Under the pieces are notes generated by a model. The model was not told the origin of the DNA. It was given only the letters and a program-made list of their open reading frames with translations, and did no database searches. From contig JBAVXU010000110.1 in the NCBI GenBank assembly GCA_049698415.1, positions 1 to 45,432 of the forward strand: a DNA stretch of 45,432 nucleotides, in the 5' to 3' direction. The DNA comes from Mycobacteriales bacterium (lineage in GTDB: Bacteria; Actinomycetota; Actinomycetes; Mycobacteriales; QHCA01). Of this stretch, positions 16,299-33,053 are shown one piece after another (position 1 is the stretch's first letter; each line of letters begins with the position of its first letter). The position numbers and the translations under genes were made by a program.

Positions 16299-16841
16299 AT
16301 GTCAACGACCGTGATCGCCGCCGGGAGCAACTTCCTGGTGCCCAACGCGACCTTCCTGGTCGAGTTGGTGGCTTTCTTGATCCTGCTCTCGGTCCTCGGG
16401 CGCTACATCGTGCCGCCGCTCCAACGTGCGGTCATGGAGCGCCAGGAGTTGATCCGCAAGCAGTTCGAGGAGGCGCGCGAGGCCAAGGAACGCGCTGAGG
16501 CGGCCGAGGCGGCGTACAAAGCCTCGCTGGAGCGGGCTCGGGCCGAAGGCAGTCAGATTCGCGAGGAAGCTCGTACGCAGGGTCGCGAGATCATCGAGGC
16601 GGCACAGGCCAAGGCGCAGGAGGATGCCGACCGCGAGTTGGTGCACGGCCGGCAGCACCTCACCACAGAGCGCGACGCCCTCGCCCGCGAGCTTCGGGCC
16701 GGTGTCGGCCAGTTGGCGACCGACCTCGCCGGCCGCATCGTCGGTGAGTCGCTGGCCGACGACGCGCGCGTGGGTGAGCTGGTCGAGGAGTTCCAGGCCG
16801 AGGAGACCACCGCGGCCGTCGCCGGCGAGAGCGCCCTCTGA
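16299..16841 (+). CDS. atpF: F0F1 ATP synthase subunit b
   Basis: N-terminal TM helix followed by a long A/E/R-rich helix. Standard operon position. Confidence 0.9.
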   Translation: MSTTVIAAGSNFLVPNATFLVELVAFLILLSVLGRYIVPPLQRAVMERQELIRKQFEEAREAKERAEAAEAAYKASLERARAEGSQIREEARTQGREIIEAAQAKAQEDADRELVHGRQHLTTERDALARELRAGVGQLATDLAGRIVGESLADDARVGELVEEFQAEETTAAVAGESAL

Positions 16842-17371
16842 TGAACTCCGCGATCGCCAAGTTCGCCGCCGAGGTCTTCGGCTTCTTCGTCGTCGCCGCA
16901 GTGCTGTGGCGCTACGTCCTGCCGTTCGCCCGCACCGCGATGACGGCCCGGCAGAAGTTGATCCAAGGGCAGTTCGACGACGCCCGCGAAGCCAAGGAGC
17001 AGGCGGAGGCCGCCGAGGCCGAGTTCAAGAGCTCCATCGACGACGCCGACACCGAGACCGCTCAGATCATCGAGAGCGCCCGCTCCCAGGCCAGGGCCAT
17101 CGTCGAGGAGTCGAGGGTCAAGGCCGAGCAGGAGGCCGAGCGCATCGCCGAACGCGGCCGCCAGCAACTCACCGCGGAGCGCGACTCACTCGTACGCGAG
17201 CTGCGGGCGCAGACGGGAGCGCAGGTCGCCGCACTGGCCAGCCGGATCGCCATGGAGCTGCTGGCCGATGATGCGCGCCGGGCTGCCACCGTCGAGCGGT
17301 TCCTGACCGATCTTGACGAGCGGGCCACGGCCGACAGCGCAGCGAGCGGTAGCTCGAAGGGGAGCAGCTGA
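16841..17371 (+). CDS. second b-type (b'-like) ATP synthase stalk subunit
   Basis: 176 aa with the same architecture and clear similarity to atpF (..QFEEAREAKERAEAAEA.. versus ..QFDDAREAKEQAEAAEA..). TGATG overlaps at both ends. Confidence 0.85.
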   Translation: MNSAIAKFAAEVFGFFVVAAVLWRYVLPFARTAMTARQKLIQGQFDDAREAKEQAEAAEAEFKSSIDDADTETAQIIESARSQARAIVEESRVKAEQEAERIAERGRQQLTAERDSLVRELRAQTGAQVAALASRIAMELLADDARRAATVERFLTDLDERATADSAASGSSKGSS

Positions 17372-18189
17372 TGCAGGTAGCCAGCCGCGAAGCGCTCGCC
17401 CAGGGACGCACTCGCCTCGACGAGCGGGAAGCCCGCTCGGGCAGCACCCGGCTCAGCACGCTGGCCGGTGACCTGCTGGCCGTGGGCCGGCTGCTCGCCC
17501 GTGAGCCGGTGCTCCGTCGGTCCCTGTCGGACCCGGCGGCACCCGAAGACGTCCGGCGCGAGCTTCTCGACGCCGTCGCGGGCAAGCAGGTCGGCAAGCC
17601 GGCAACCGAGTTGCTGCACGATCTGGTCTCTAGCCGGTGGTCGTCCCCGGCCGACCTCGTCGACGCCTGCGAACTTCTCGCCGTGCAGGCACTGCTGGCC
17701 GCCGCGGAAGCCGACGACGCGCTGCCCGATGTCGAGGACCAGCTCTTCCGCTTCCTGAGAGTCTGTGCTGGCGACGCCGAGCTGCGCGCGACGCTGGCCG
17801 ACTCGACTGCAGCCGTCGACCGGCGCGAACGCCTGGTCGACGACCTCCTCAAGGGCAACGCGCACGCTGTCACCCAGACCCTGGTCAAGCTCGCGCTCGG
17901 CGGGCTGAGTGGACGTGGCTTCGAGGCATCGCTGGAGCGGATGGTCGAGCTGGCCGCGCAACGCCGAGACCATGCGGCGGCCTACGTCACCGTGGCGACG
18001 GGGCTGACCCGCAAGCAGGAGAGCGAGCTCGAGGCGACCCTGGCCCGGATCTACGGACGCAAGATGTCGCTGCTCATCGTCGTCGACCCGTCGATCCTCG
18101 GCGGGATGACGGTGCGCGTCGGTGACGAGTTGTACGACGGCAGTGTTGCGAGACGACTGGCCCAGGTGCGTTCCGGACTGGCCGGCTAG
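17371..18189 (+). CDS. atpH: F0F1 ATP synthase subunit delta (long, 272 aa)
   Basis: OSCP-type C-terminus GGMTVRVGDELYDGSVARRL. About 90 aa longer than delta in most bacteria. Confidence 0.9.
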   Translation: MQVASREALAQGRTRLDEREARSGSTRLSTLAGDLLAVGRLLAREPVLRRSLSDPAAPEDVRRELLDAVAGKQVGKPATELLHDLVSSRWSSPADLVDACELLAVQALLAAAEADDALPDVEDQLFRFLRVCAGDAELRATLADSTAAVDRRERLVDDLLKGNAHAVTQTLVKLALGGLSGRGFEASLERMVELAAQRRDHAAAYVTVATGLTRKQESELEATLARIYGRKMSLLIVVDPSILGGMTVRVGDELYDGSVARRLAQVRSGLAG

Positions 18190-18243: not shown

Positions 18244-19905
18244 ATGGCGGAGTTGACCATCTCCTCTGAGGAGATCCGCAGCGCGATCGAGCGCTACGTC
18301 TCCTCGTACACGCCAGAGACCTCCAAGGAGGAGGTCGGTCTGGTGACCGAGGTCGGCGACGGGATCGCCCGCGTGGAGGGCCTGCCCTCGACAATGACCA
18401 ACGAGCTGCTCGAGTTCGAAGGCGGTCTGCTCGGCATCGCGCTGAACCTCGACGTACGCGAGATCGGCACCGTGCTGCTGGGCAACTACGAGAACATCGA
18501 GGAGGGCCAGCAGGTCCGGCGTACCGGCCGGGTCCTGTCCGTGCCGGTCGGCGACGCCTTCCTCGGCCGGGTGGTCGACGCGCTGGGCACCCCGATCGAC
18601 GGCAAGGGCGAGATCGACACGACCGAGCGGCGCGCCCTGGAGCTTCAGGCGCCCTCCGTCGTGATGCGCCAGCCGGTCAAGGAGCCCATGCAGACCGGGA
18701 TCAAGTCCATCGACGCCATGACGGCCATCGGCCGCGGCCAGCGCCAGCTGATCATCGGTGACCGGCAGACCGGCAAGACCGCGGTCGCGATCGACACGAT
18801 CATCAACCAGAAGGACAACTGGGACAGCGGCGATCCCAAGCTGCAGGTCAAGTGCATCTACGTCGCGATCGGGCAGAAGGGCTCGACCATCGCGGCCATC
18901 CGCGGTGCGCTCGAGGACGCCGGAGCGATGGAGTACACCACCATCGTGGCTGCACCGGCCTCCGATGCGGCCGGCTTCAAGTACGTCGCGCCCTACACCG
19001 GATCGGCGATCGGCCAGCACTGGATGTACGACGGCCAGCACGTGCTGATCGTCTTCGACGACTTGTCCAAGCAGGCCGAGGCCTATCGCGCCGTTTCGTT
19101 GCTGCTGCGCCGTCCGCCGGGCCGCGAGGCATACCCCGGTGACGTCTTCTACCTTCACTCCCGCCTGTTGGAGCGGTGCGCGAAGCTCTCCGACGAGCTG
19201 GGCGGCGGCTCGATGACCGGCCTGCCGATCATCGAGACCAAGGGCAACGACATCTCGGCCTACATCCCGACCAACGTCATCTCGATCACCGACGGCCAGA
19301 TCTTCCTCGAGACCGACCTGTTCAACTCCGGCGTCCGGCCCGCGATCAACGTCGGCGTCTCGGTCTCCCGGGTCGGCGGCAACGCCCAGATCAAGGCGAT
19401 GAAGTCGGTGTCGGGTCGGCTGCGTCTCGACCTGGCGCAGTACCGCGAGCTCGAAGCGTTCTCCGCCTTCGGCTCCGACCTCGATCCTGCCTCCAAGGCT
19501 TCGCTGGCCCGGGGAGAGCGCCTGGTCGAACTGCTCAAGCAGCCGCAGTACTCCCCGTTCTCGGTGGAGCGTGAGGTCGTGGCGCTGTGGGCGGGCACGA
19601 CCGGCGAGCTCGACGTCGTCCCGGTCAGCGACATCCGGCGGTTCGAATCGGAGTTCCTCGACTACGTCGGTCGCGAGCACAAGGGCATCTACGACTCGAT
19701 CGTGGAGACCGGCAAGCTCGAGGACGACACCGTCGAGTCCCTCAAGAAGGCGATCGAGTCCTTCAAGAAGGAGTTCGAGACCGGCTCCGGGGACTCGCTG
19801 AAGCTCAACGAGGCCGAGGCGGAGGCGATGAATCCCGACGACGAGGGCAAGGAGTCGGTCAAGAAGTACACCAAGAAGCCCAAGCCGCCAGAGAAGAAGT
19901 CATAG
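18244..19905 (+). CDS. atpA: F0F1 ATP synthase subunit alpha with a C-terminal extension
   Basis: Walker A GDRQTGKT and conserved alpha-subunit sequence throughout. About 40 extra C-terminal residues. Confidence 0.97.
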
Positions 19906-19908
19906 CGC

Positions 19909-22313
<2,405 letters not shown>

Positions 22314-22435
22314 GGTCAGGGCCGGCGGGCGGGATCGACGAAGCTCAGCGCCCACCGGCCAGGCTCAGCTGACGGCGGCCTGGTCATCACCTCCGACGTG
22401 TTGCCCGTGCGCGGCACGGCAAGGATTATCAGGTT

Positions 22436-23143
22436 GTGGACGACGCCAACACGTGGGAGACCTATGAGCTCCCGCCGCTGACCGACGCGCCGCCCGAGGA
22501 CATGTTCACCCCGCTCGAGGACCAGTTGGCCAGCGTCCGGGAGTGGAACGAGACCCGCCGGTGGGGCTTCACCCCGGCCGACTTCGCGGCCATCGACCTC
22601 ACCCCCCGCCTGCACGCGAGCCCGCTCGTCGTCGATGTGATCGCGGTCTACCTCCACGGCAAGGGCGAGCTCGACGCCGTACGACACACCGCAGATGACC
22701 TGTGGCTGCTCGCGGCCGTACAACAGCCCAACGCCTGGTGCTGGGACGACTGGTACTGGAACCAGCCCGGCAGCGGGCTGAAGCCGCTGCGGCTGGCCAA
22801 GGGGCTTGAGCACCGCCCCGGGGTGCGGCGGGTGACCCTCGACCTGGGTGCACACTGGCAGCCGGGCCGACACGTCAGCGCGCTGCAGGTGATGAGCCAG
22901 AACTCCGCTCACGCCGAAGTGCTCGCCGCGGCCGCACACTTCCCCAACTGGGTACGCGCCATGGACGGCCGAACCGTCCCCTACACCTGGCTGGCCGGAT
23001 ATCAGGTGACCATCCCGCCGTACTCCCGGCACTACCGGCTGCCGTGCCTGACGTGGACGAGGTACCGGCAGATGCTCAGCCTCACCAGTCACGAGGCGGC
23101 CTACACGCAGTTCGGCTGGGCCGCCCCGGTCTGCCTCGCCTGA
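22436..23143 (+). CDS. hypothetical Trp-rich soluble protein inserted between atpD and atpC
   Basis: 235-aa ORF with strong plus-strand third-position G/C bias (GTG GAC GAC GCC AAC ACG TGG GAG ACC..). AAGGA lies upstream of the GTG. No TM segment or signal peptide and no recognised family. About 13 Trp residues, including [11 protein letters not shown]. Confidence 0.7.
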
Positions 23144-23220
23144 GCCGCGCGCCGGGCCACCTGCAGGTCACGCGCGGTGGTTGCTGTGGGTGACCTCGCC
23201 GGAGCGTGGAGGCCGGTGGG

Positions 23221-23226
23221 TAGACT
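23221..23226 (+). promoter_or_regulatory. candidate -10 element (TAGACT) upstream of atpC
   Basis: Same hexamer as upstream of glyA, 36 nt before the atpC GTG. Speculative. Confidence 0.25.
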
Positions 23227-23261
23227 CGCGAAATCCCATTCTGGACCGTGAGGAGTTGCAG

Positions 23262-23657
23262 GTGGCAGAGCCGCTACAGGTCGAGCTCGTCTCTGTGGAG
23301 CGGCCGATCTGGTCTGGCGAGGCGACCATGGTCCGCGCCCGGACCACGGAGGGTGAGCTGGGCATCCTTCCCGGTCATGCGCCCTTGCTCGGCGAGCTCG
23401 CCGAGGGCTGGGTCGTGCGCATCAAGCAGGACGCCGGCTCCGAGCTGGTGGCCGCGGTGCACGGCGGCTTCCTCTCGGTCACCCCGGAGGGTGTTTCGAT
23501 CCTGGCCGAGATCGCGGAGTTGGCTGACGACATCGACGTCGGCCGCGCCCGCCAAGCCTACGAACGCACCGACAACGCCGATCGCGACGACGAAGATGCG
23601 CAGGCCGCACGACAGCGTGCGATGAGCCGCCTGCGCGCCGTCGGCGAGCCGGTCTGA
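23262..23657 (+). CDS. atpC: F0F1 ATP synthase subunit epsilon
   Basis: [37 protein letters not shown]. Start trimmed to the GTG at 23262 after GAGGAG; the computed ORF starts at 23181. Confidence 0.92.
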
Positions 23658-23682: not shown

Positions 23683-24117
23683 GTGCCCACGATCCTGCTC
23701 GACACCGTCGCCATCGTCGTCGTCGGCTCGGTCTGGCTCGTTGTCGCGTTCGCGTTCCGCCGCTGGCTGCTAGCCCGCGGCGGCGGCACGGTCGAGATGT
23801 GCCTGCGGCTACGCCTGGGCAAGCGCGGCCGCGGGTGGGTCCTGGGCACCGGGAGGTACGTCGGTGACGACCTGCAGTGGTTCCGGGTGTTCAGCCTCGC
23901 CCCTCACCCGCGGCGCACCCTCTCGCGCCGGGGGCTGCGCGTCGGGCAGCGACGCACGCCCTCGGGTCAGGAGCGGTTGGCCTTGCAGTCGGGCATGGTC
24001 ATCCTCGAGTGCGAGGCGACGGACGGCCCGGTGCAGATCGCGATCGGTCAGGTCGCCCTGAACGGATTCCTGTCCTGGCTCGAAGCCGCCGCCTCCGGCC
24101 CGGTGGTCGGCGACTGA
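23683..24117 (+). CDS. DUF2550-family membrane-anchored protein
   Basis: N-terminal TM helix. It occupies the conserved position immediately after atpC, as in other Actinomycetota (the Rv1312 position in M. tuberculosis). Confidence 0.8.
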   Translation: MPTILLDTVAIVVVGSVWLVVAFAFRRWLLARGGGTVEMCLRLRLGKRGRGWVLGTGRYVGDDLQWFRVFSLAPHPRRTLSRRGLRVGQRRTPSGQERLALQSGMVILECEATDGPVQIAIGQVALNGFLSWLEAAASGPVVGD

Positions 24118-26961: not shown

Positions 26962-27600
26962 TCAGCGGCCGGGGGAGGGCAGCACACCGCGCTCCATGGC
27001 CACGGTGACCGCGGCCGTACGATCGTCGACCCCGAGCTTGGCGAAGATGCGCAGCAGGTGGGTCTTGACCGTCGCCTCGCCGATATAGAGCGCCTGGCCG
27101 ACCTCGGCGTTGGTCCGGCCGCGCGCCACCTCGGCGAGCACCTGGACCTCACGGGCGGTGAGTGACTCCACCGGCCCGCTGCGCATGCTGGTGAACAACC
27201 GTGCCGCCACCGGCGGGGCTAGCACGGTCTCACCGCGCGCCGCCGCGCGTAGCGCTGCCGCCAACTCCTCCCGCGGGGTGTCCTTGAGCAGGTAACCCGC
27301 GGCTCCGGCCTCGACGGCGCGCAGGATGTCGGCGTCGCGGTCGTAGGTCGTGAGGATCACGACGCGGACCTCCGGGTGCTCGCTGGTGATCCGCCCGGTC
27401 GAGGCCGCGCCGTCGAGTCCGGGCATCTGCAGGTCCATCAGCACCACGTCGGGGTTCACCTGGCTGATGAGTTCGAGCGCTTCCTCACCTGAGGCCGCCT
27501 CACCGACCACCTCGAGGGTCGGGTCCGTCGACAGCATGCCGCGCAGGCCTTCGCGCACGACCGGGTGGTCGTCGACGATCAGCACCCGTACGACGCTCAC
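26962..27600 (-). CDS. NarL/LuxR-family response regulator
   Basis: Receiver domain LIVDDHPVV...DVVLMDLQMPGLDG. C-terminal HTH LTAREVQVLAEVARGRTNAEVGQALYIGEATVKTHL. GTGA overlap with the kinase. Confidence 0.92.
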   Translation of the reverse strand: MSVVRVLIVDDHPVVREGLRGMLSTDPTLEVVGEAASGEEALELISQVNPDVVLMDLQMPGLDGAASTGRITSEHPEVRVVILTTYDRDADILRAVEAGAAGYLLKDTPREELAAALRAAARGETVLAPPVAARLFTSMRSGPVESLTAREVQVLAEVARGRTNAEVGQALYIGEATVKTHLLRIFAKLGVDDRTAAVTVAMERGVLPSPGR

Positions 27601-28775
27601 GGCAGAGTCACCCCCACCAGGGTGCCCTGGCCCGGGGCACTCTCCAGCAGGACGTCCCCGCCCGCCTGTTCGACCCTGGCTCTGATGCCCTGCAGCCCGA
27701 AGCCTTCGGCGGTGGCAGGCACGAAGCCACGGCCATCATCACGTACTCGCACCGACACGCTCTCGTCCACAAACGACAAGCTAACCGTGACCTCACTGGC
27801 CTGCGCATGCTTGCGTACGTTGTTGAGCGCCTCCTGCGCGACCCGCAGCAGCACGACTTCGGTGCCGCGGGGCAGTGGGCGCGACTCACCGGTCACGCTC
27901 AGGCTGCACGAGACACCTGTCTCGGCACCGAAGTTGTCGGTGAGCCGGGTCAGAGCCTCGACCAGCGGCGCAGACTGGAGTGAGGTGGGCCCGAGCTCGG
28001 TGACCAGCGAGCGTGCCTCGTCGAGGTTCTCGCGGGCGGTGCGCTCGATCGAGTCCAGGGACCGACGGAGTTCGTCGTCGGACCGGCCCACCTGGGCGGC
28101 GGCTGCCTGGCCGAGCATGACGATGCTGGTGAACCCCTGGGCCAACGTGTCGTGGATCTCGAGCGCCAGTCGTTGCCGCTCGGCGGCAGCACCTGCGGCG
28201 TGGTGCGCGATCGCGAGTTCCTCGCGGGCCGAGCGCAACTCCTCGATGAGCTGCCGGCGGTTCTTGCTCTGCCTGATGATTCCGCTGATCCAGGCGCCGA
28301 AGACGCCGGCGAACACCAGCGAGACAAGTCCGCCGCCCAGAGCCGCAGCACTGCCCGCTGTGCTCCAGTGGCTCTGTGCGGCGTTGATCACGCCGATGCC
28401 CAGCGACAGCACCGCCGCGGCGAATATCGCCAGGCGCAGGTCATCGAGGTAGGTGAACATCTGCGGATAGACGATGAACAACAGGAGTGCCATAGCCGGG
28501 TGCGCGGCGAAGCCGGCCAGGACGAGCACTACGGTGACGGTCGCCGCAAGCATTGCGCGGTGCCGGTTCTGGGCGCCGAGATGGCGAGCGCCGAACCCGG
28601 CGTACCACGCCGCGAGGGCCAACACGCAAGCGCCGGCGACTAGGCGTCTACTGGTGCTCGGGCCGGTGCTGTCGAACGCGATCCCGGTGAGGGCGAGCAC
28701 GGCGAGCACGCCGAAAAAGATGTGCCATCCGCTGCGATAACGCTCCCAGACGTCCTGCTCGGTAGCCGGTGTCAT
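27597..28775 (-). CDS. HisKA_3-type sensor histidine kinase (polytopic, no large extracytoplasmic domain)
   Basis: H-box LALEIHDTLAQG, N-box EALNNVRKHA, DDGRGF and GFGLQGI. Start set at the ATG at 28775 (ATGA overlap with the permease stop); the longer computed ORF overlaps the permease. Confidence 0.9.
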   Translation of the reverse strand: MTPATEQDVWERYRSGWHIFFGVLAVLALTGIAFDSTGPSTSRRLVAGACVLALAAWYAGFGARHLGAQNRHRAMLAATVTVVLVLAGFAAHPAMALLLFIVYPQMFTYLDDLRLAIFAAAVLSLGIGVINAAQSHWSTAGSAAALGGGLVSLVFAGVFGAWISGIIRQSKNRRQLIEELRSAREELAIAHHAAGAAAERQRLALEIHDTLAQGFTSIVMLGQAAAAQVGRSDDELRRSLDSIERTARENLDEARSLVTELGPTSLQSAPLVEALTRLTDNFGAETGVSCSLSVTGESRPLPRGTEVVLLRVAQEALNNVRKHAQASEVTVSLSFVDESVSVRVRDDGRGFVPATAEGFGLQGIRARVEQAGGDVLLESAPGQGTLVGVTLP

Positions 28776-29617
28776 CCGTCGCGCCGGCCCCGCCACCGGA
28801 ACGTGCGCAGGCACAGCGCCAAGCCTCCGATGCACCACGCCGCCAGCACAATGGCGATCATCCCGTGCTCCCAGGACCCGGCCGGCTCCTGGCTGACGAA
28901 CGTGTCGGGCAGGAACACCGAGCGCAGCCCTTGGCACATCCACTTCAGCGGGAACACCGAGGAGATCTGCTGCAAACCGGCCGGGAGTTGGCTGAACGGG
29001 ATGTACACCCCGGAGATGAACTGCAGCAGGATGAACGGCGGGGTCACCACCGCCGCTGCGGCCCGGCCGCTGCGTGGCACGCTCGCCATCGCGATCCCGA
29101 GCAGCGAGCAGGCGACCAGCGCCAGCACGAACACCCAGCCGAAGGTGACCCACCGGGCAGCGCTGCTCGGCAGCTTGAGGCCGAAGGCCAGCGTGCCGAT
29201 CGTCAGCAGCAGGATCGTCTCGATCACGCCGGTCACGACCACGAGGACGACCTTGCCGACGAAGTACGAAGCGCGCGGCATCGGAGTCCCGGCCAGTCGC
29301 TTGAGGGTGCCGTCGTCGCGCTCGATCGCGATGCTGATGGCCAGGCTCTGGAAGCTGGTCGACATGATTCCGGACGCGATCATCCCGGCGATGAACACCT
29401 GGCGGACGTCGACGCCGGTGTTGCCGATCTCGCCGTGGAAGATCGAGGCGAACAGCACCATCAGGCCCACCGGGAACAGCAGGCTGAACACCACGGCGTC
29501 GCGTTCGCGCATGAACTGCCGGATCTCGATCGAACCGCGCCGCAAGCCGACCCCCACTACCGACGGCGCCCTCGGCGCCACCCTGGGCGCCCCCGCGACC
29601 GGTGTCGCGGCCGTCAC
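28772..29617 (-). CDS. ABC-2 type transporter permease
   Basis: 281 aa with about 6 TM segments. GTGA overlap with the ATPase gene. Confidence 0.87.
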   Translation of the reverse strand: MTAATPVAGAPRVAPRAPSVVGVGLRRGSIEIRQFMRERDAVVFSLLFPVGLMVLFASIFHGEIGNTGVDVRQVFIAGMIASGIMSTSFQSLAISIAIERDDGTLKRLAGTPMPRASYFVGKVVLVVVTGVIETILLLTIGTLAFGLKLPSSAARWVTFGWVFVLALVACSLLGIAMASVPRSGRAAAAVVTPPFILLQFISGVYIPFSQLPAGLQQISSVFPLKWMCQGLRSVFLPDTFVSQEPAGSWEHGMIAIVLAAWCIGGLALCLRTFRWRGRRDG

Positions 29618-30459
29618 GCCCGCTCTCCGATCATGTCCAAGTAGACGTCTTCGAGGGTCGGCCGCCGGACTATCAGGTCGGGGATCTCGCCGTCGAACCT
29701 GCCGGCCAGATCGGTGACCACCTGGGTGGGAGATACGGTCTGCACGGATTCGGTGCCCTGCGGACCGGTCCAGCTGACCGTTGCCCTGGCGCGATCGCGT
29801 CCGCCCAGGTGCGCGGGCGGTCCGACCGCCAGGATCTGCCCGTCCTTGACGACGCCGACCCGGTCGGCCAGGGCCTCCGCCTCCTCGAGGTAGTGCGTGG
29901 TCAGCACGATGGTGGTGTCCTCGTCGTTGAGCAACCGGATCAGCGACCAGAACTGCCGCCGGGCGGCGGGGTCGAATCCGGTGGTCGGCTCGTCGAGGAA
30001 GAGCAACTCGGGGCGGCCGAGGATGCCGAGGGCGACGTCGAGTCGCCGGCGCTGTCCGCCGGACAGTTGGCGGGTGCGCGCCTTGCGCTTCGCTGTCAGG
30101 CCGACCAGGTCGATCACCTCATCGGGATCGCGCGGGTCGGGGTAGTAGTGCGTGAAGTGCGCGACCATCTCCGCGACGGTGAGTTCGGCGGCGTCGTTGA
30201 CGCTCTGCAGCACGATGCCGATGCGGGCTCGCCAGGCGGCGCTGGGGTGACCGGGATCTGCTCCCAACACCGCCACCTCGCCCTGGTCGCGCGAGCGGTA
30301 GCCCTCGAGGATTTCCACGGTGGTGGTCTTGCCGGCCCCGTTCGGACCCAGAAGTGCAAAGACCTCGCCCCGCCGTACCTGCAGGTCGAGTCCGTCGACC
30401 GCGACCGTTTCGCGGTAGCTCTTGCGCAGCCCCCGCACCTCGATCGCGACGTCATCCAT
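29614..30459 (-). CDS. ABC transporter ATP-binding protein (DrrA-like)
   Basis: Walker A GPNGAGKTT, signature LSGGQRRR, Walker B LLFLDEPT. Confidence 0.93.
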   Translation of the reverse strand: MDDVAIEVRGLRKSYRETVAVDGLDLQVRRGEVFALLGPNGAGKTTTVEILEGYRSRDQGEVAVLGADPGHPSAAWRARIGIVLQSVNDAAELTVAEMVAHFTHYYPDPRDPDEVIDLVGLTAKRKARTRQLSGGQRRRLDVALGILGRPELLFLDEPTTGFDPAARRQFWSLIRLLNDEDTTIVLTTHYLEEAEALADRVGVVKDGQILAVGPPAHLGGRDRARATVSWTGPQGTESVQTVSPTQVVTDLAGRFDGEIPDLIVRRPTLEDVYLDMIGERA

Positions 30460-30656: not shown

Positions 30657-30989
30657 ATGCGTCAGGCGACGGCACGGCGGCCCATCTGCGACGACGTCCT
30701 TGTCGTGGTGACCGGTCGCATCGACGGGTCCACGGTCTCTGCGTTGCGCGAAATCCTGCATGCAGCCGTCGACCGCGCCGAGGGACGCGTCGTGATCGAC
30801 GTGTCCGGAGTGGACACCATCGACGCCACGGGGCTCGGCATGCTGGTGGGCACCCACCGCCGGGCCGACGCCCTCGGTCACGTGGTGGTCCTGCGGGATG
30901 TGCCCGTACGCATGGCCAAGCTGCTTCGCGTCACCAAGGTCGATCGCGTCCTGCGCTCAGAGGTGCGGCTGCCCGTGGGCGCTGCCTGA
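30657..30989 (+). CDS. STAS-domain protein (anti-sigma-factor antagonist family)
   Basis: 110 aa with VVIDVSGVDTIDATGLGMLV (SpoIIAA-like D-x-[ST]-G-L-G, with Thr at the phosphorylatable position). GGAGG RBS. Confidence 0.85.
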   Translation: MRQATARRPICDDVLVVVTGRIDGSTVSALREILHAAVDRAEGRVVIDVSGVDTIDATGLGMLVGTHRRADALGHVVVLRDVPVRMAKLLRVTKVDRVLRSEVRLPVGAA

Positions 30990-31052
30990 GCGTATTACCC
31001 GCCGGTAGGCTCTGAGCCGTCGTCGTTGACGGGCGGCCCGAAGGAGGCTCCG

Positions 31053-33053
31053 GTGCCCTACCCATCTGCTCCCGGTGATCACGACCCGCCGTGGGTGATG
31101 CGCACCTACGCCGGTCACTCCTCCGCCCGGGAGTCCAACGAGTTGTTCCGGCGCAACATCGCCAAGGGCCAGACCGGCCTGTCGGTGGCCTTCGACCTGC
31201 CCACTCAGACGGGCTACGACCCGGACCACGAACTCGCCCGCGGTGAGGTGGGCAAGGTCGGAGTGCCGATCGCCCACGTCGGTGACCTGCGCGCGCTCTT
31301 CGACGAGATCCCGCTGGCCGAGACCAACACCTCGATGACGATCAACGCGACGGCGATGTGGCTGCTCGCGCTATATCAGGTGGTGGCGCAGGAGCAGGGT
31401 GCCGACGTCGCGGCGCTGACCGGCACCACCCAGAACGACATCATCAAGGAGTACCTCTCCCGGGGAACCTACGTCTTCCCGCCCGCGGCCTCGCTGCGCC
31501 TGGTCACCGACATGGTCGTGCACACGGTGACGCGGATACCGAAATGGAGCCCGATCAACATCTGCTCGTACCACCTGCAGGAGGCCGGCGCCACGCCGGT
31601 TCAGGAGGTGGCGTTCTCGCTGTGCAACGCGATGGCCGTGCTCGACTCGGTGCGCGACAGCGGCCAGATCGGCCCCGACGCGATGGGCGGGGTCGTCGCC
31701 CGCATCTCGTTCTTCGTCAACGCCGGGGTGCGTTTCGTCGAAGAGATGTGCAAGATGCGCGCCTTCGTCGAGTTGTGGGACGAGATCACCCAGCAGCGCT
31801 ACGGCGTCACCGACCCGCGGCAGCGCCGGTTCCGCTACGGCGTGCAGGTCAACTCCCTGGGGCTGACCGCCGCCCAGCCCGAGAACAACATCCAGCGCAT
31901 CGTGCTCGAGATGCTCGCGGTCACCCTCTCCCGCGACGCCCGGGCGCGGGCGGTGCAGCTGCCGGCATGGAACGAAGCGCTCGGGCTGCCCCGGCCCTGG
32001 GACCAGCAGTGGTCGTTGCGGCTGCAGCAGGTGCTCGCCTACGAAAGCGACCTGTTGGAATACGACGACCTGTTCACGGGATCGCCGGTCGTCGAGGCCA
32101 AGGTCGCCTCCATCGTCGAGGGCTCCCGGGCCGAGATCGACCGGGTGCAGGCGCTCGGTGGCGCGGTGCCGGCCGTCGAGAGCGGCTACATGAAGACCGA
32201 GTTGGTGCGCTCGCTCGCCGAGCGGCACCGCCGGATCGAGTCCGGCGAGGATGTCGTGATCGGCGTCAACAAGTTCACGACCTCCGAGCCCAACCCGCTG
32301 CTGGCCGACCTCGATGCCGCGATCCAGACCGTCGACCCGGCCGGTGAGCAGGCGGCGATCGACGCACTCGAGCGCTGGCGCGCAGAGCGCGACGCCACCG
32401 AGGTCGATGCCGCGCTCGGGGCGTTGCGCGATGCGGCCAAGACCGAGGGCAACCTGATGGAGGTGACGCTTCGGTGCGCTCGCGCCGGCGTCACGACGGG
32501 GGAGTGGGCGGGAGTCCTCCGCGACGTCTTCGGTGAGTACCGCGCCCCGACCGGAGTGTCCGGCACCGCCGTCGTCGGCGGTGACCCCGGTGAGCAGATC
32601 GCGGCCGTACGCCGGCGGGTCGCCGCGACCGGGCGTGACCTGGGCGTACGACTGAAGATGCTGGTGGGCAAGCCGGGCCTCGACGGGCATTCCAACGGTG
32701 CCGAGCAGGTCGCCGTCCGGGCCCGTGACGTCGGCTTCGAGGTGGTCTATCAGGGGATCCGGCTGACCCCGGCGGAGATCGTGGCCGCCGCGGTTCAGGA
32801 GGACGTGCACGTGGTGGGGCTCTCGGTGCTGTCCGGGTCGCACCTGGGCGTCGTCCCGGACGTGATCGACGGCCTACGCGCCGCCGGGATGGCTGACGTG
32901 CCGGTGATCGTCGGCGGCATCATCCCCGACCGCGATGCCGAGGTGCTGCGCGGACTCGGCGTGGCCCGGGTGTTCACCCCCAAGGACTACGAACTGACCG
33001 AGATCATGGACGACATCGTCGGTGTGATCCGCCAGGTGCACGGCCTCGATTGA
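31053..33053 (+). CDS. fused B12-dependent acyl-CoA mutase (methylmalonyl-CoA mutase family; MeaA/ethylmalonyl-CoA-mutase-like by motif)
   Basis: RTYAGHSS, GLSVAFDLPTQTGYD and TGTTQNDIIKEYLSRGTY motifs. C-terminal cobalamin-binding DxHxxG (LDGHSNG). GTG at 31053, 5 nt after AAGGAGG (the ORF is open from 31026). Confidence 0.92.
   Translation: MPYPSAPGDHDPPWVMRTYAGHSSARESNELFRRNIAKGQTGLSVAFDLPTQTGYDPDHELARGEVGKVGVPIAHVGDLRALFDEIPLAETNTSMTINATAMWLLALYQVVAQEQGADVAALTGTTQNDIIKEYLSRGTYVFPPAASLRLVTDMVVHTVTRIPKWSPINICSYHLQEAGATPVQEVAFSLCNAMAVLDSVRDSGQIGPDAMGGVVARISFFVNAGVRFVEEMCKMRAFVELWDEITQQRYGVTDPRQRRFRYGVQVNSLGLTAAQPENNIQRIVLEMLAVTLSRDARARAVQLPAWNEALGLPRPWDQQWSLRLQQVLAYESDLLEYDDLFTGSPVVEAKVASIVEGSRAEIDRVQALGGAVPAVESGYMKTELVRSLAERHRRIESGEDVVIGVNKFTTSEPNPLLADLDAAIQTVDPAGEQAAIDALERWRAERDATEVDAALGALRDAAKTEGNLMEVTLRCARAGVTTGEWAGVLRDVFGEYRAPTGVSGTAVVGGDPGEQIAAVRRRVAATGRDLGVRLKMLVGKPGLDGHSNGAEQVAVRARDVGFEVVYQGIRLTPAEIVAAAVQEDVHVVGLSVLSGSHLGVVPDVIDGLRAAGMADVPVIVGGIIPDRDAEVLRGLGVARVFTPKDYELTEIMDDIVGVIRQVHGLD

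Follow-up and report, generated by a model that had tools for sequence, protein, structure and literature searches.

A gene of an unnamed protein family between atpD and atpC in a Mycobacteriales genome and its probable local relocation into the atp operon

Why does a gene of no recognised family separate atpD from atpC, the genes of the F1 beta and epsilon subunits, in a metagenomic contig of an uncultured actinobacterium? The stretch of DNA analysed here (the window, a whole contig of 45,432 bp; source assembly labelled Mycobacteriales bacterium) carries on its forward strand an open reading frame (ORF) of 235 amino acids (aa), to which we gave the working name X (22436-23143, 708 nt, GTG start; NCBI MGB9376728.1, annotated as 'hypothetical protein'). 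X lies between atpD (20853-22313, 486 aa) and atpC (23262-23657, 131 aa, GTG start), both on the same strand, with a spacer of 122 bp on its 5' side (22314-22435) and of 118 bp on its 3' side (23144-23261). The first-pass annotation of this DNA had offered two explanations, either a neutral insertion that forced atpC onto a promoter of its own, or an accessory or regulatory factor of the ATP synthase embedded in its operon. From a comparison with relatives' loci on metagenomic contigs (designated by L-numbers), we consider it likely that X is a self-promoted accessory gene that a recent local rearrangement placed in a permissive spacer of the atp operon, with no demonstrated tie to the ATP synthase.

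Position of X in the window and in its relatives

The order atpD-X-atpC was found only in the window and in its two closest metagenomic relatives, L008 (86% identity to the window in X and 96% in atpD) and L089 (88% and 99%), the latter of which has YunG and FR47-like genes additionally between atpD and X (L089 975-2311, minus strand). In L173, which is 80% identical to the window in X, 94% in atpD, 81% in atpC and 83% in an acyl-CoA mutase gene, the atpD-atpC junction is uninterrupted and 110 bp long, and the genes that follow are atpC, DUF2550, a minus-strand PduO gene, murA, FMO, 3HCDH, YbjQ, a 133-aa ORF (h133), X, STAS and the mutase. The order X-STAS-mutase was also found in L011 and in L010/L006, where a PadR gene lies upstream, and in L001/L009 the mutase comes directly after X. 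Among these relatives with about 80% identity (L173, L011, L010 and L001), the distance from atpC to X is about 3.6-6.4 kb where both share a contig. The window retains murA, 3HCDH, STAS (30657-30989, matched in Pfam) and the fused acyl-CoA mutase (31026-33053; both on the forward strand), and its STAS gene has no X upstream. Because the STAS-mutase pair lacks X in the window and is preceded by X in the relatives, we conclude that X shifted by about 7.5 kb in the lineage of the window, L008 and L089. At the position where L173 carries FMO, YbjQ, the 133-aa ORF and X, the window has a minus-strand block between 3HCDH and STAS (26962-30459), which encodes a LuxR-type response regulator, a HisKA_3 histidine kinase and an ABC transporter, and this block is the other end of the rearrangement.

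When the same pairs of genomes are compared, X and atpC have nearly equal synonymous divergence (dS; for X and atpC 0.84 vs 0.81, 0.67 vs 0.72 and 0.81 vs 0.85), no GC anomaly was seen at X, and X was not found in plasmid, phage and IMG/VR collections. Given this agreement in dS, the unremarkable composition and the lack of plasmid or phage matches, the move is best explained as a rearrangement within the chromosome that involved a vertically inherited gene, and not as a horizontal acquisition. X would then be a functional accessory gene that stands by itself and belongs to an uncharacterised protein family of actinobacteria. Earlier it would have lain immediately upstream of the STAS/acyl-CoA-mutase pair downstream of the atp operon, and in the window lineage it would have moved into the atpD-atpC spacer.

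The more distant paralogs of X (52-66% identity) lie in other housekeeping neighbourhoods with no atp gene nearby, namely between mshC-like and SixA genes on one side and a beta-helix lipoprotein gene on the other in about 12 Pseudonocardiaceae metagenome-assembled genomes (MAGs), and beside hpt/ftsH or a DsbA-like gene elsewhere. Across 90 X loci no shared functional partner was found, only lineage-restricted synteny such as the STAS-mutase pair in the subfamily of the window. Two further neighbourhoods are recorded here as observations. In L007 (1917-5187), an X of 77% identity lies between a gene for a SpoIIE-type PP2C phosphatase and VapB / PhdYeFM-PIN toxin-antitoxin genes. In L170 (6001-8847), from a MAG that resembles the candidate phyla radiation (CPR) and is labelled Candidatus Methylomirabilis, a gene for a 325-aa RVT_1 reverse transcriptase lies about 1 kb downstream of the X homolog, and in both L170 and L171 no more than about 4 kb separates the family members from rpsP, a KH-domain gene and trmD.

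In the window, the genes of the atp region preceding X are, in order, atpB, atpE, two atpF, atpH, atpA, atpG and atpD, and X is followed by atpC, a DUF2550 gene (PF10739, Pfam match, 23683-24117), a minus-strand gene for a PduO-type adenosyltransferase and murA. The assignment of atpD is supported by its 94-99% identity to the relatives' atpD, and the ATP-synt_DE_N domain was matched in the atpC of L008. The end of atpD, both spacers, the 708-nt ORF and the start of atpC had been placed exactly by the first-pass annotation, whereas its guess that the DNA came from Nocardioidaceae/Propionibacteriales was mistaken. Two features of the upstream atp genes deserve mention on their own. Two separate ATP-synt_B genes (180 and 176 aa) are followed by a 272-aa delta subunit (16299-18189 together); the second b gene and the delta gene share one base at 17371, the OSCP domain of delta begins only at residue 106, and the arrangement looks like the mycobacterial b-delta fusion in unfused form. 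The atpA gene (18244-19905) encodes a product of 553 aa whose C-terminal ~40 residues form a Lys/Pro/Glu-rich tail, possibly a counterpart of the C-terminal extension with which the mycobacterial alpha subunit suppresses ATP hydrolysis.

Promoter-like block of X and a permissive junction

X is preceded by a promoter-like block (22401-22435), in which a -35-like TTGCCC (22401-22406) is followed by 17 nt, a -10-like GATTAT (22424-22429), 6 nt and the GTG start codon. The same arrangement (TTGCCC, N17-18, nAYyAT, N6-7, GTG or ATG start) was found in all 12 close copies including L173, with TTGCTC in two, and in a count against the more distant paralogs the block was present in 11 of 11 close copies, from at least 6 contexts, and in 0 of 78 of the distant ones. 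Between copies in different contexts, homology extends from about -38 to 2-14 nt past the stop codon. Since neutral sites are near saturation at this divergence (dS about 0.8), the conservation of the block indicates that it is under selection. We infer that it is a sigma-A-type promoter giving a leaderless mRNA, in which case X would carry its own transcription signal wherever it is located. In Mycobacterium, TANNNT-type -10 elements lie 7-12 bp upstream of transcription starts, and leaderless mRNAs are abundant (PMC3898074). The block of X resembles such leaderless actinobacterial sigma-A units in its -35-like TTGCCC, the spacing of 17-18 nt, the 6-7 nt to the GTG, the A at -11 and the T at -7 of the hexamer, and the lack of a Shine-Dalgarno sequence between the hexamer and the start, and it differs from their TANNNT consensus in having G, A or C at -12. 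The remainder of the 5' spacer (22314-22400) could not be aligned with uninterrupted junctions and contains neither a conserved element nor a terminator-like site; as a scan of the spacers gave no recognisable terminator on either side of X, and thus none between atpD and X, transcription from the atp promoter probably runs into the gene as well.

Downstream of X, the last 45 bp before atpC (23217-23261) correspond to the native atpC upstream region, with a -10-like TAGACT (23221-23226) and a GAGGAG Shine-Dalgarno sequence (23250-23255). The first-pass annotation had noticed the TAGACT and had suggested that the insertion forced atpC onto its own promoter. However, the same block (TAGACT, about 20 nt, AGGAG, about 6 nt, start) precedes atpC in the window, L008, L089, L011, L090, L163 and L173, and in L163 and L173 it stands within uninterrupted junctions of 105 and 110 bp, which shows that the block pre-dates the insertion of X and contradicts that suggestion. 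TAGACT was located 33-41 nt upstream of atpC, also in the more distant L130, L133, L135 and L161. Other lineages whose junctions contain a spacer have TAGAAT, TAGGCT or TACACT as the -10-like hexamer, and where the two genes abut there is none. The sequence suggests that the TAGACT block acts as a promoter of atpC. X would have landed upstream of it, so that expression of epsilon would be left undisturbed, and the junction would tolerate X thanks to the TAGACT/AGGAG block with which atpC was already equipped in this clade; more generally, a junction with an already autonomous atpC likely tolerates insertions upstream of this block. In a different actinobacterial lineage (L131, L150, L148, L143, L162, L157, L145 and L168), we observed a conserved gTAGAATTCnnTGnGTG immediately before atpC, which contains a -10-like TAGAAT 6-7 nt before the GTG start and suggests a leaderless, independently transcribed atpC. 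Our literature searches on atpD-atpC insertions and on internal promoters of atpC returned nothing relevant.

The tolerance of the junction is also evident from what else it contains. Among 67 atpD-atpC junctions of relatives, the median gap is 47 bp, 57 gaps are ≤250 bp and 8 are ≥600 bp, and X occupies three of the eight long ones (the window, L008 and L089). The other five contain an unmatched 171-aa ORF (L011), a gene for a 706-aa FG-GAP/DUF5122 protein (L090, 1331-3451), a minus-strand GNAT acetyltransferase gene (L109, 288-1376), a Y_phosphatase3 tyrosine phosphatase gene (L114, 767-1474) and an unmatched 230-aa ORF (L160). The 171-aa ORF of L011 had been considered HIT-like, for which Pfam gave no support. 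The atpD-atpC junction is therefore an insertion hotspot whose cargo varies by lineage, and the premise that atpD and atpC form one of the most conserved gene pairs in bacteria holds broadly, with the qualification that in these soil Actinomycetota the pair is recurrently interrupted by unrelated cargo.

Two structures in the spacers had been singled out earlier together with the TAGACT, a bulged hairpin (22401-22422) and the palindrome ACCTGCAGGT (23159-23168) nested in CCGCGCG/CGCGCGG arms. Both are present, but neither stood out from chance: the fold z-scores against dinucleotide shuffles were -0.41 for the 5' spacer and -1.00 for the 3' spacer, with -0.57 and +0.07 (palindrome) for sub-elements, and neither is conserved in L008 or L089, the relatives with the X insertion. 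The hairpin overlaps the -35-like hexamer of X and its spacer, and the part of the 3' spacer that contains the palindrome (23144-23216) has no U-tract terminator. No match to Rfam was found in the spacers. In agreement with the earlier description, there are no mobile-element hallmarks or flanking direct repeats around X, and no target-site duplication. A perfect 10-nt inverted repeat does bracket the gene (CCCACCGGCC at 22351-22360 and GGCCGGTGGG at 23211-23220, the right arm abutting TAGACT); inverted repeats of at least 10 nt arise in 4% of shuffles, this one is missing from L008 and L089, and we regard it as probably due to chance.

The protein family of X

The translation of X contains 13 Trp residues (5.5%) and has a pI of about 5.9, a net charge of -9 over its first 30 residues, and no transmembrane segment or signal peptide (the highest 19-residue Kyte-Doolittle window is 1.2). 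The first-pass annotation had rightly described the Trp richness, the acidic N-terminus, the lack of a transmembrane segment or signal peptide, and the host-like codon bias. The GC content is 0.91 at third codon positions (GC3; 0.84-0.93 in the neighbouring genes) and 0.50 at second positions (GC2), a coding-like pattern. Against seven relatives, the ratio of nonsynonymous to synonymous divergence (dN/dS) of X was 0.11-0.24, compared with 0.07-0.14 for atpC, and X is thus under purifying selection. We found 255 homologues at E≤1e-3 in a collection clustered at 90%, and an exhaustive HMMER search extended the family to at least 444 clusters at 50% identity; all named matches carry the label 'hypothetical protein'. 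Nearly all members belong to uncultured Actinomycetota (Pseudonocardiales, Mycobacteriales, Geodermatophilaceae and Acidimicrobiia), apart from a few remote ones in unclassified or CPR-like MAGs, and several MAGs contain two or more of them. These results leave essentially no room for X being a spurious open frame. GC-rich intergenic DNA does yield many long artefactual ORFs, and several overlap the X region in other frames, but the codon pattern, the dN/dS, hundreds of full-length homologues and the confident fold predictions described below rule out this reading.

The homology within the family is full-length, with conserved Q30, N38, T85, W90, G129, D136, P170, P182, G188 and P231. Eight of the 13 Trp residues are conserved family-wide; most of the Trp residues occupy conserved positions in the core. 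A set of conserved polar residues (Q30, N38, T85, R119, H126, R131, D136, H159, D177 and Y189) suggests a ligand-binding or catalytic site, and we would expect X, judging from conservation, to be a soluble protein that binds a ligand or is catalytic and that is centred on a cluster of D136, H159, H126, T85 and R131. The AlphaFold2 model of X had a mean predicted local distance difference test (pLDDT) score of 91.9 and a predicted template modeling (pTM) score of 0.89, and the model of a distant 266-aa family member had a pLDDT of 95.0; X is a Trp-rich cytosolic alpha/beta protein. That it has no recognised motif, as noted at the outset, was borne out by the family and structure searches. Pfam, NCBIfam, PADLOC and PHROGs gave no match to X, and Pfam and NCBIfam gave none for 75 family members either. 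A sequence and profile search of the PDB returned only noise (a nanobody, an armadillo-repeat protein, HA2, and Nif11 at E=1.2). With Foldseek, neither of the two models had a neighbour in the PDB (best E 0.98 and 0.74, TM-score ≤0.14), and one model searched against BFVD had none there. Judged against the PDB and BFVD, the fold may be new. Domain fusions were equally uninformative: ten longer family members were checked and had no informative extra domain, their additional length being either start-codon overcalls or an N-terminal helical segment of ~50 residues, which is found in distant family members and is missing from the X subfamily.

Weighing the readings of the locus

The idea that X is an accessory or regulatory subunit of F1Fo, for instance one that inhibits ATP hydrolysis or helps in assembly and whose site would ensure stoichiometric co-expression, deserves attention because X shares the operon and the strand of the atp genes, no terminator could be recognised before or after it, the order is kept in the two closest relatives, and the gene is under purifying selection. 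In addition, actinobacterial ATP synthases carry lineage-specific regulatory additions. However, conserved linkage of X to atp genes was not found in L173, L011, L010/L006, L001/L009, L005, L007 or about 78 distant loci; X lies between atpD and atpC at three of 90 loci, L011 has X and the junction within 5 kb of each other with X off the junction, and the ~80%-identical relatives hold X about 3.6-6.4 kb away near STAS and the mutase, with an intact junction in L173. Other relatives have unrelated genes in the same junction, and X has its own promoter-like block wherever it is located. No similarity to an ATP synthase subunit, inhibitor or assembly factor was detected in Pfam, NCBIfam, PDB sequence or Foldseek searches: X is unlike epsilon, zeta, IF1, AtpI or any PDB chain, and the sole feature it has in common with the epsilon C-terminal domain, zeta, IF1 and AtpI is location in or next to the atp operon. 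Synteny of X with atp genes is confined to one small lineage. A further comparison can be made with DUF2550 (Rv1312-type), which follows atpC in Actinobacteria and is likewise a small uncharacterised protein gene attached to the atp operon, but DUF2550 follows atpC in each of the loci where it was detected (the window, L011 and L173), whereas X does not keep its place, and the two have no sequence similarity, X belonging to no Pfam family. An ATP synthase subunit is therefore highly improbable, and we take X to have no ATP synthase role. We give just as little credence to a more elaborate version, in which X founds a new fold and family (widespread in uncultured Actinomycetota, with some CPR-like hosts) and read-through from atp couples its dosage to that of the ATP synthase, with X modulating F1 or energy-linked metabolism; if that were true, the move into the atp operon would be no accident and X would exert a lineage-specific modulation, for example of latent F1 ATPase activity. 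Of the two original explanations, the second thus fails for want of conserved atp synteny over the 90 loci and of sequence or fold similarity to a known protein, and two of the findings that the first-pass annotation had named as refuting were made, namely the absence of the ORF from the junction of close relatives and the recurrent interruption of the junction by unrelated cargo. The first holds insofar as the insertion appears unrelated to the ATP synthase (the site is occupied by X only in the window, L008 and L089, and is intact in L173), and falls short in the word 'neutral', given the dN/dS of X.

Two other accounts concern the gene itself rather than the operon. X may be a minimal promoter-plus-ORF cassette that actively moves between intergenic sites by an unrecognised mechanism, the atp junction being one landing site: copies with 77-88% identity occur in at least six neighbourhoods (atpD/atpC, h133 or 3HCDH/STAS, PadR/STAS, TetR and SpoIIE/VapB among them), the homology between copies is confined to the gene and its block, several MAGs hold more than one member, and distant CPR-like genomes also place members between housekeeping genes. 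By analogy, X resembles a phage moron, a single ORF with its own promoter-like signal in a gap between two strongly conserved genes, and the atpD-atpC gap holds different cargo in different relatives. X differs from morons in lying in chromosomal housekeeping DNA, in its host-like composition and vertical divergence, and in having no evident terminator. We consider such a cassette quite unlikely: terminal inverted repeats and target-site duplications are absent, no transposase, recombinase or integrase lies beside any close copy, X was not found on plasmids, phages or viral contigs, its composition is host-like, its dS matches that of atpC as expected for vertical descent, most of the 'different' contexts are one STAS-mutase site with variable upstream genes, and loss of flank homology is expected at a dS of about 0.8 even without mobility. 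Alternatively, X may work with STAS, the acyl-CoA mutase or a partner-switching network, the atp site being a by-product of the rearrangement that swapped FMO/YbjQ/h133/X for the two-component and ABC transporter module. The adjacency of X and STAS in L173, L011 and L010/L006, the mutase after X in L001/L009, and the STAS-mutase pair that the window keeps behind a different gene block are consistent with this, and the SpoIIE-type PP2C phosphatase gene that directly precedes X in L007 hints weakly, along with STAS as a neighbour elsewhere, at a partner-switching context. However, the adjacency represents one inherited site and not a repeated independent association, the distant paralogs adjoin other genes (mshC-like, SixA and beta-helix lipoprotein genes, hpt/ftsH, or a DsbA-like gene), X is preceded by a promoter-like block of its own instead of being coupled translationally to its neighbours, and the lineage of the window tolerates the separation, all of which makes this account rather doubtful.

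Our preferred reading, a self-promoted gene relocated locally into a permissive spacer, has points against it as well. The -10-like hexamer of X departs at -12 from a strict TANNNT, having G, A or C instead of T, a simple consensus scanner does not call the block (8 of 12 positions matched), and a purine-rich AAGGA/AGGGA that lies 10-12 nt before the start within the conserved block could be a long-spaced Shine-Dalgarno sequence instead of part of a promoter. The promoters proposed for X and for atpC are both predictions from the sequence of an uncultured MAG. The direction of the move was deduced from how X is distributed phylogenetically over a handful of metagenomic contigs. At a dS of about 0.8 the neutral flanks are saturated, so that the tight limits of homology around X reflect selection and not a mobile unit. 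Finally, co-transcription of X with the atp genes in the window lineage could have gained functional meaning.

In summary, this locus is a variant operon architecture in which one gene belongs to a protein family that has neither a name nor a structural match. A tempting false lead is thereby removed, as X does not hold up as a candidate component of the ATP synthase. In soil Actinomycetota, unrelated genes have repeatedly come to interrupt the 'inviolable' atpD-atpC junction, which the -10-like and Shine-Dalgarno block that atpC has of its own apparently makes possible, and this calls for caution when function is deduced from operon context. The locus also provides a clean natural example of a gene with its own predicted promoter that was relocated by a few kilobases without horizontal transfer. 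The family of X, large, strongly constrained and lacking a Pfam or NCBIfam model, is a reasonable target for the definition of a new domain family and for structure determination.

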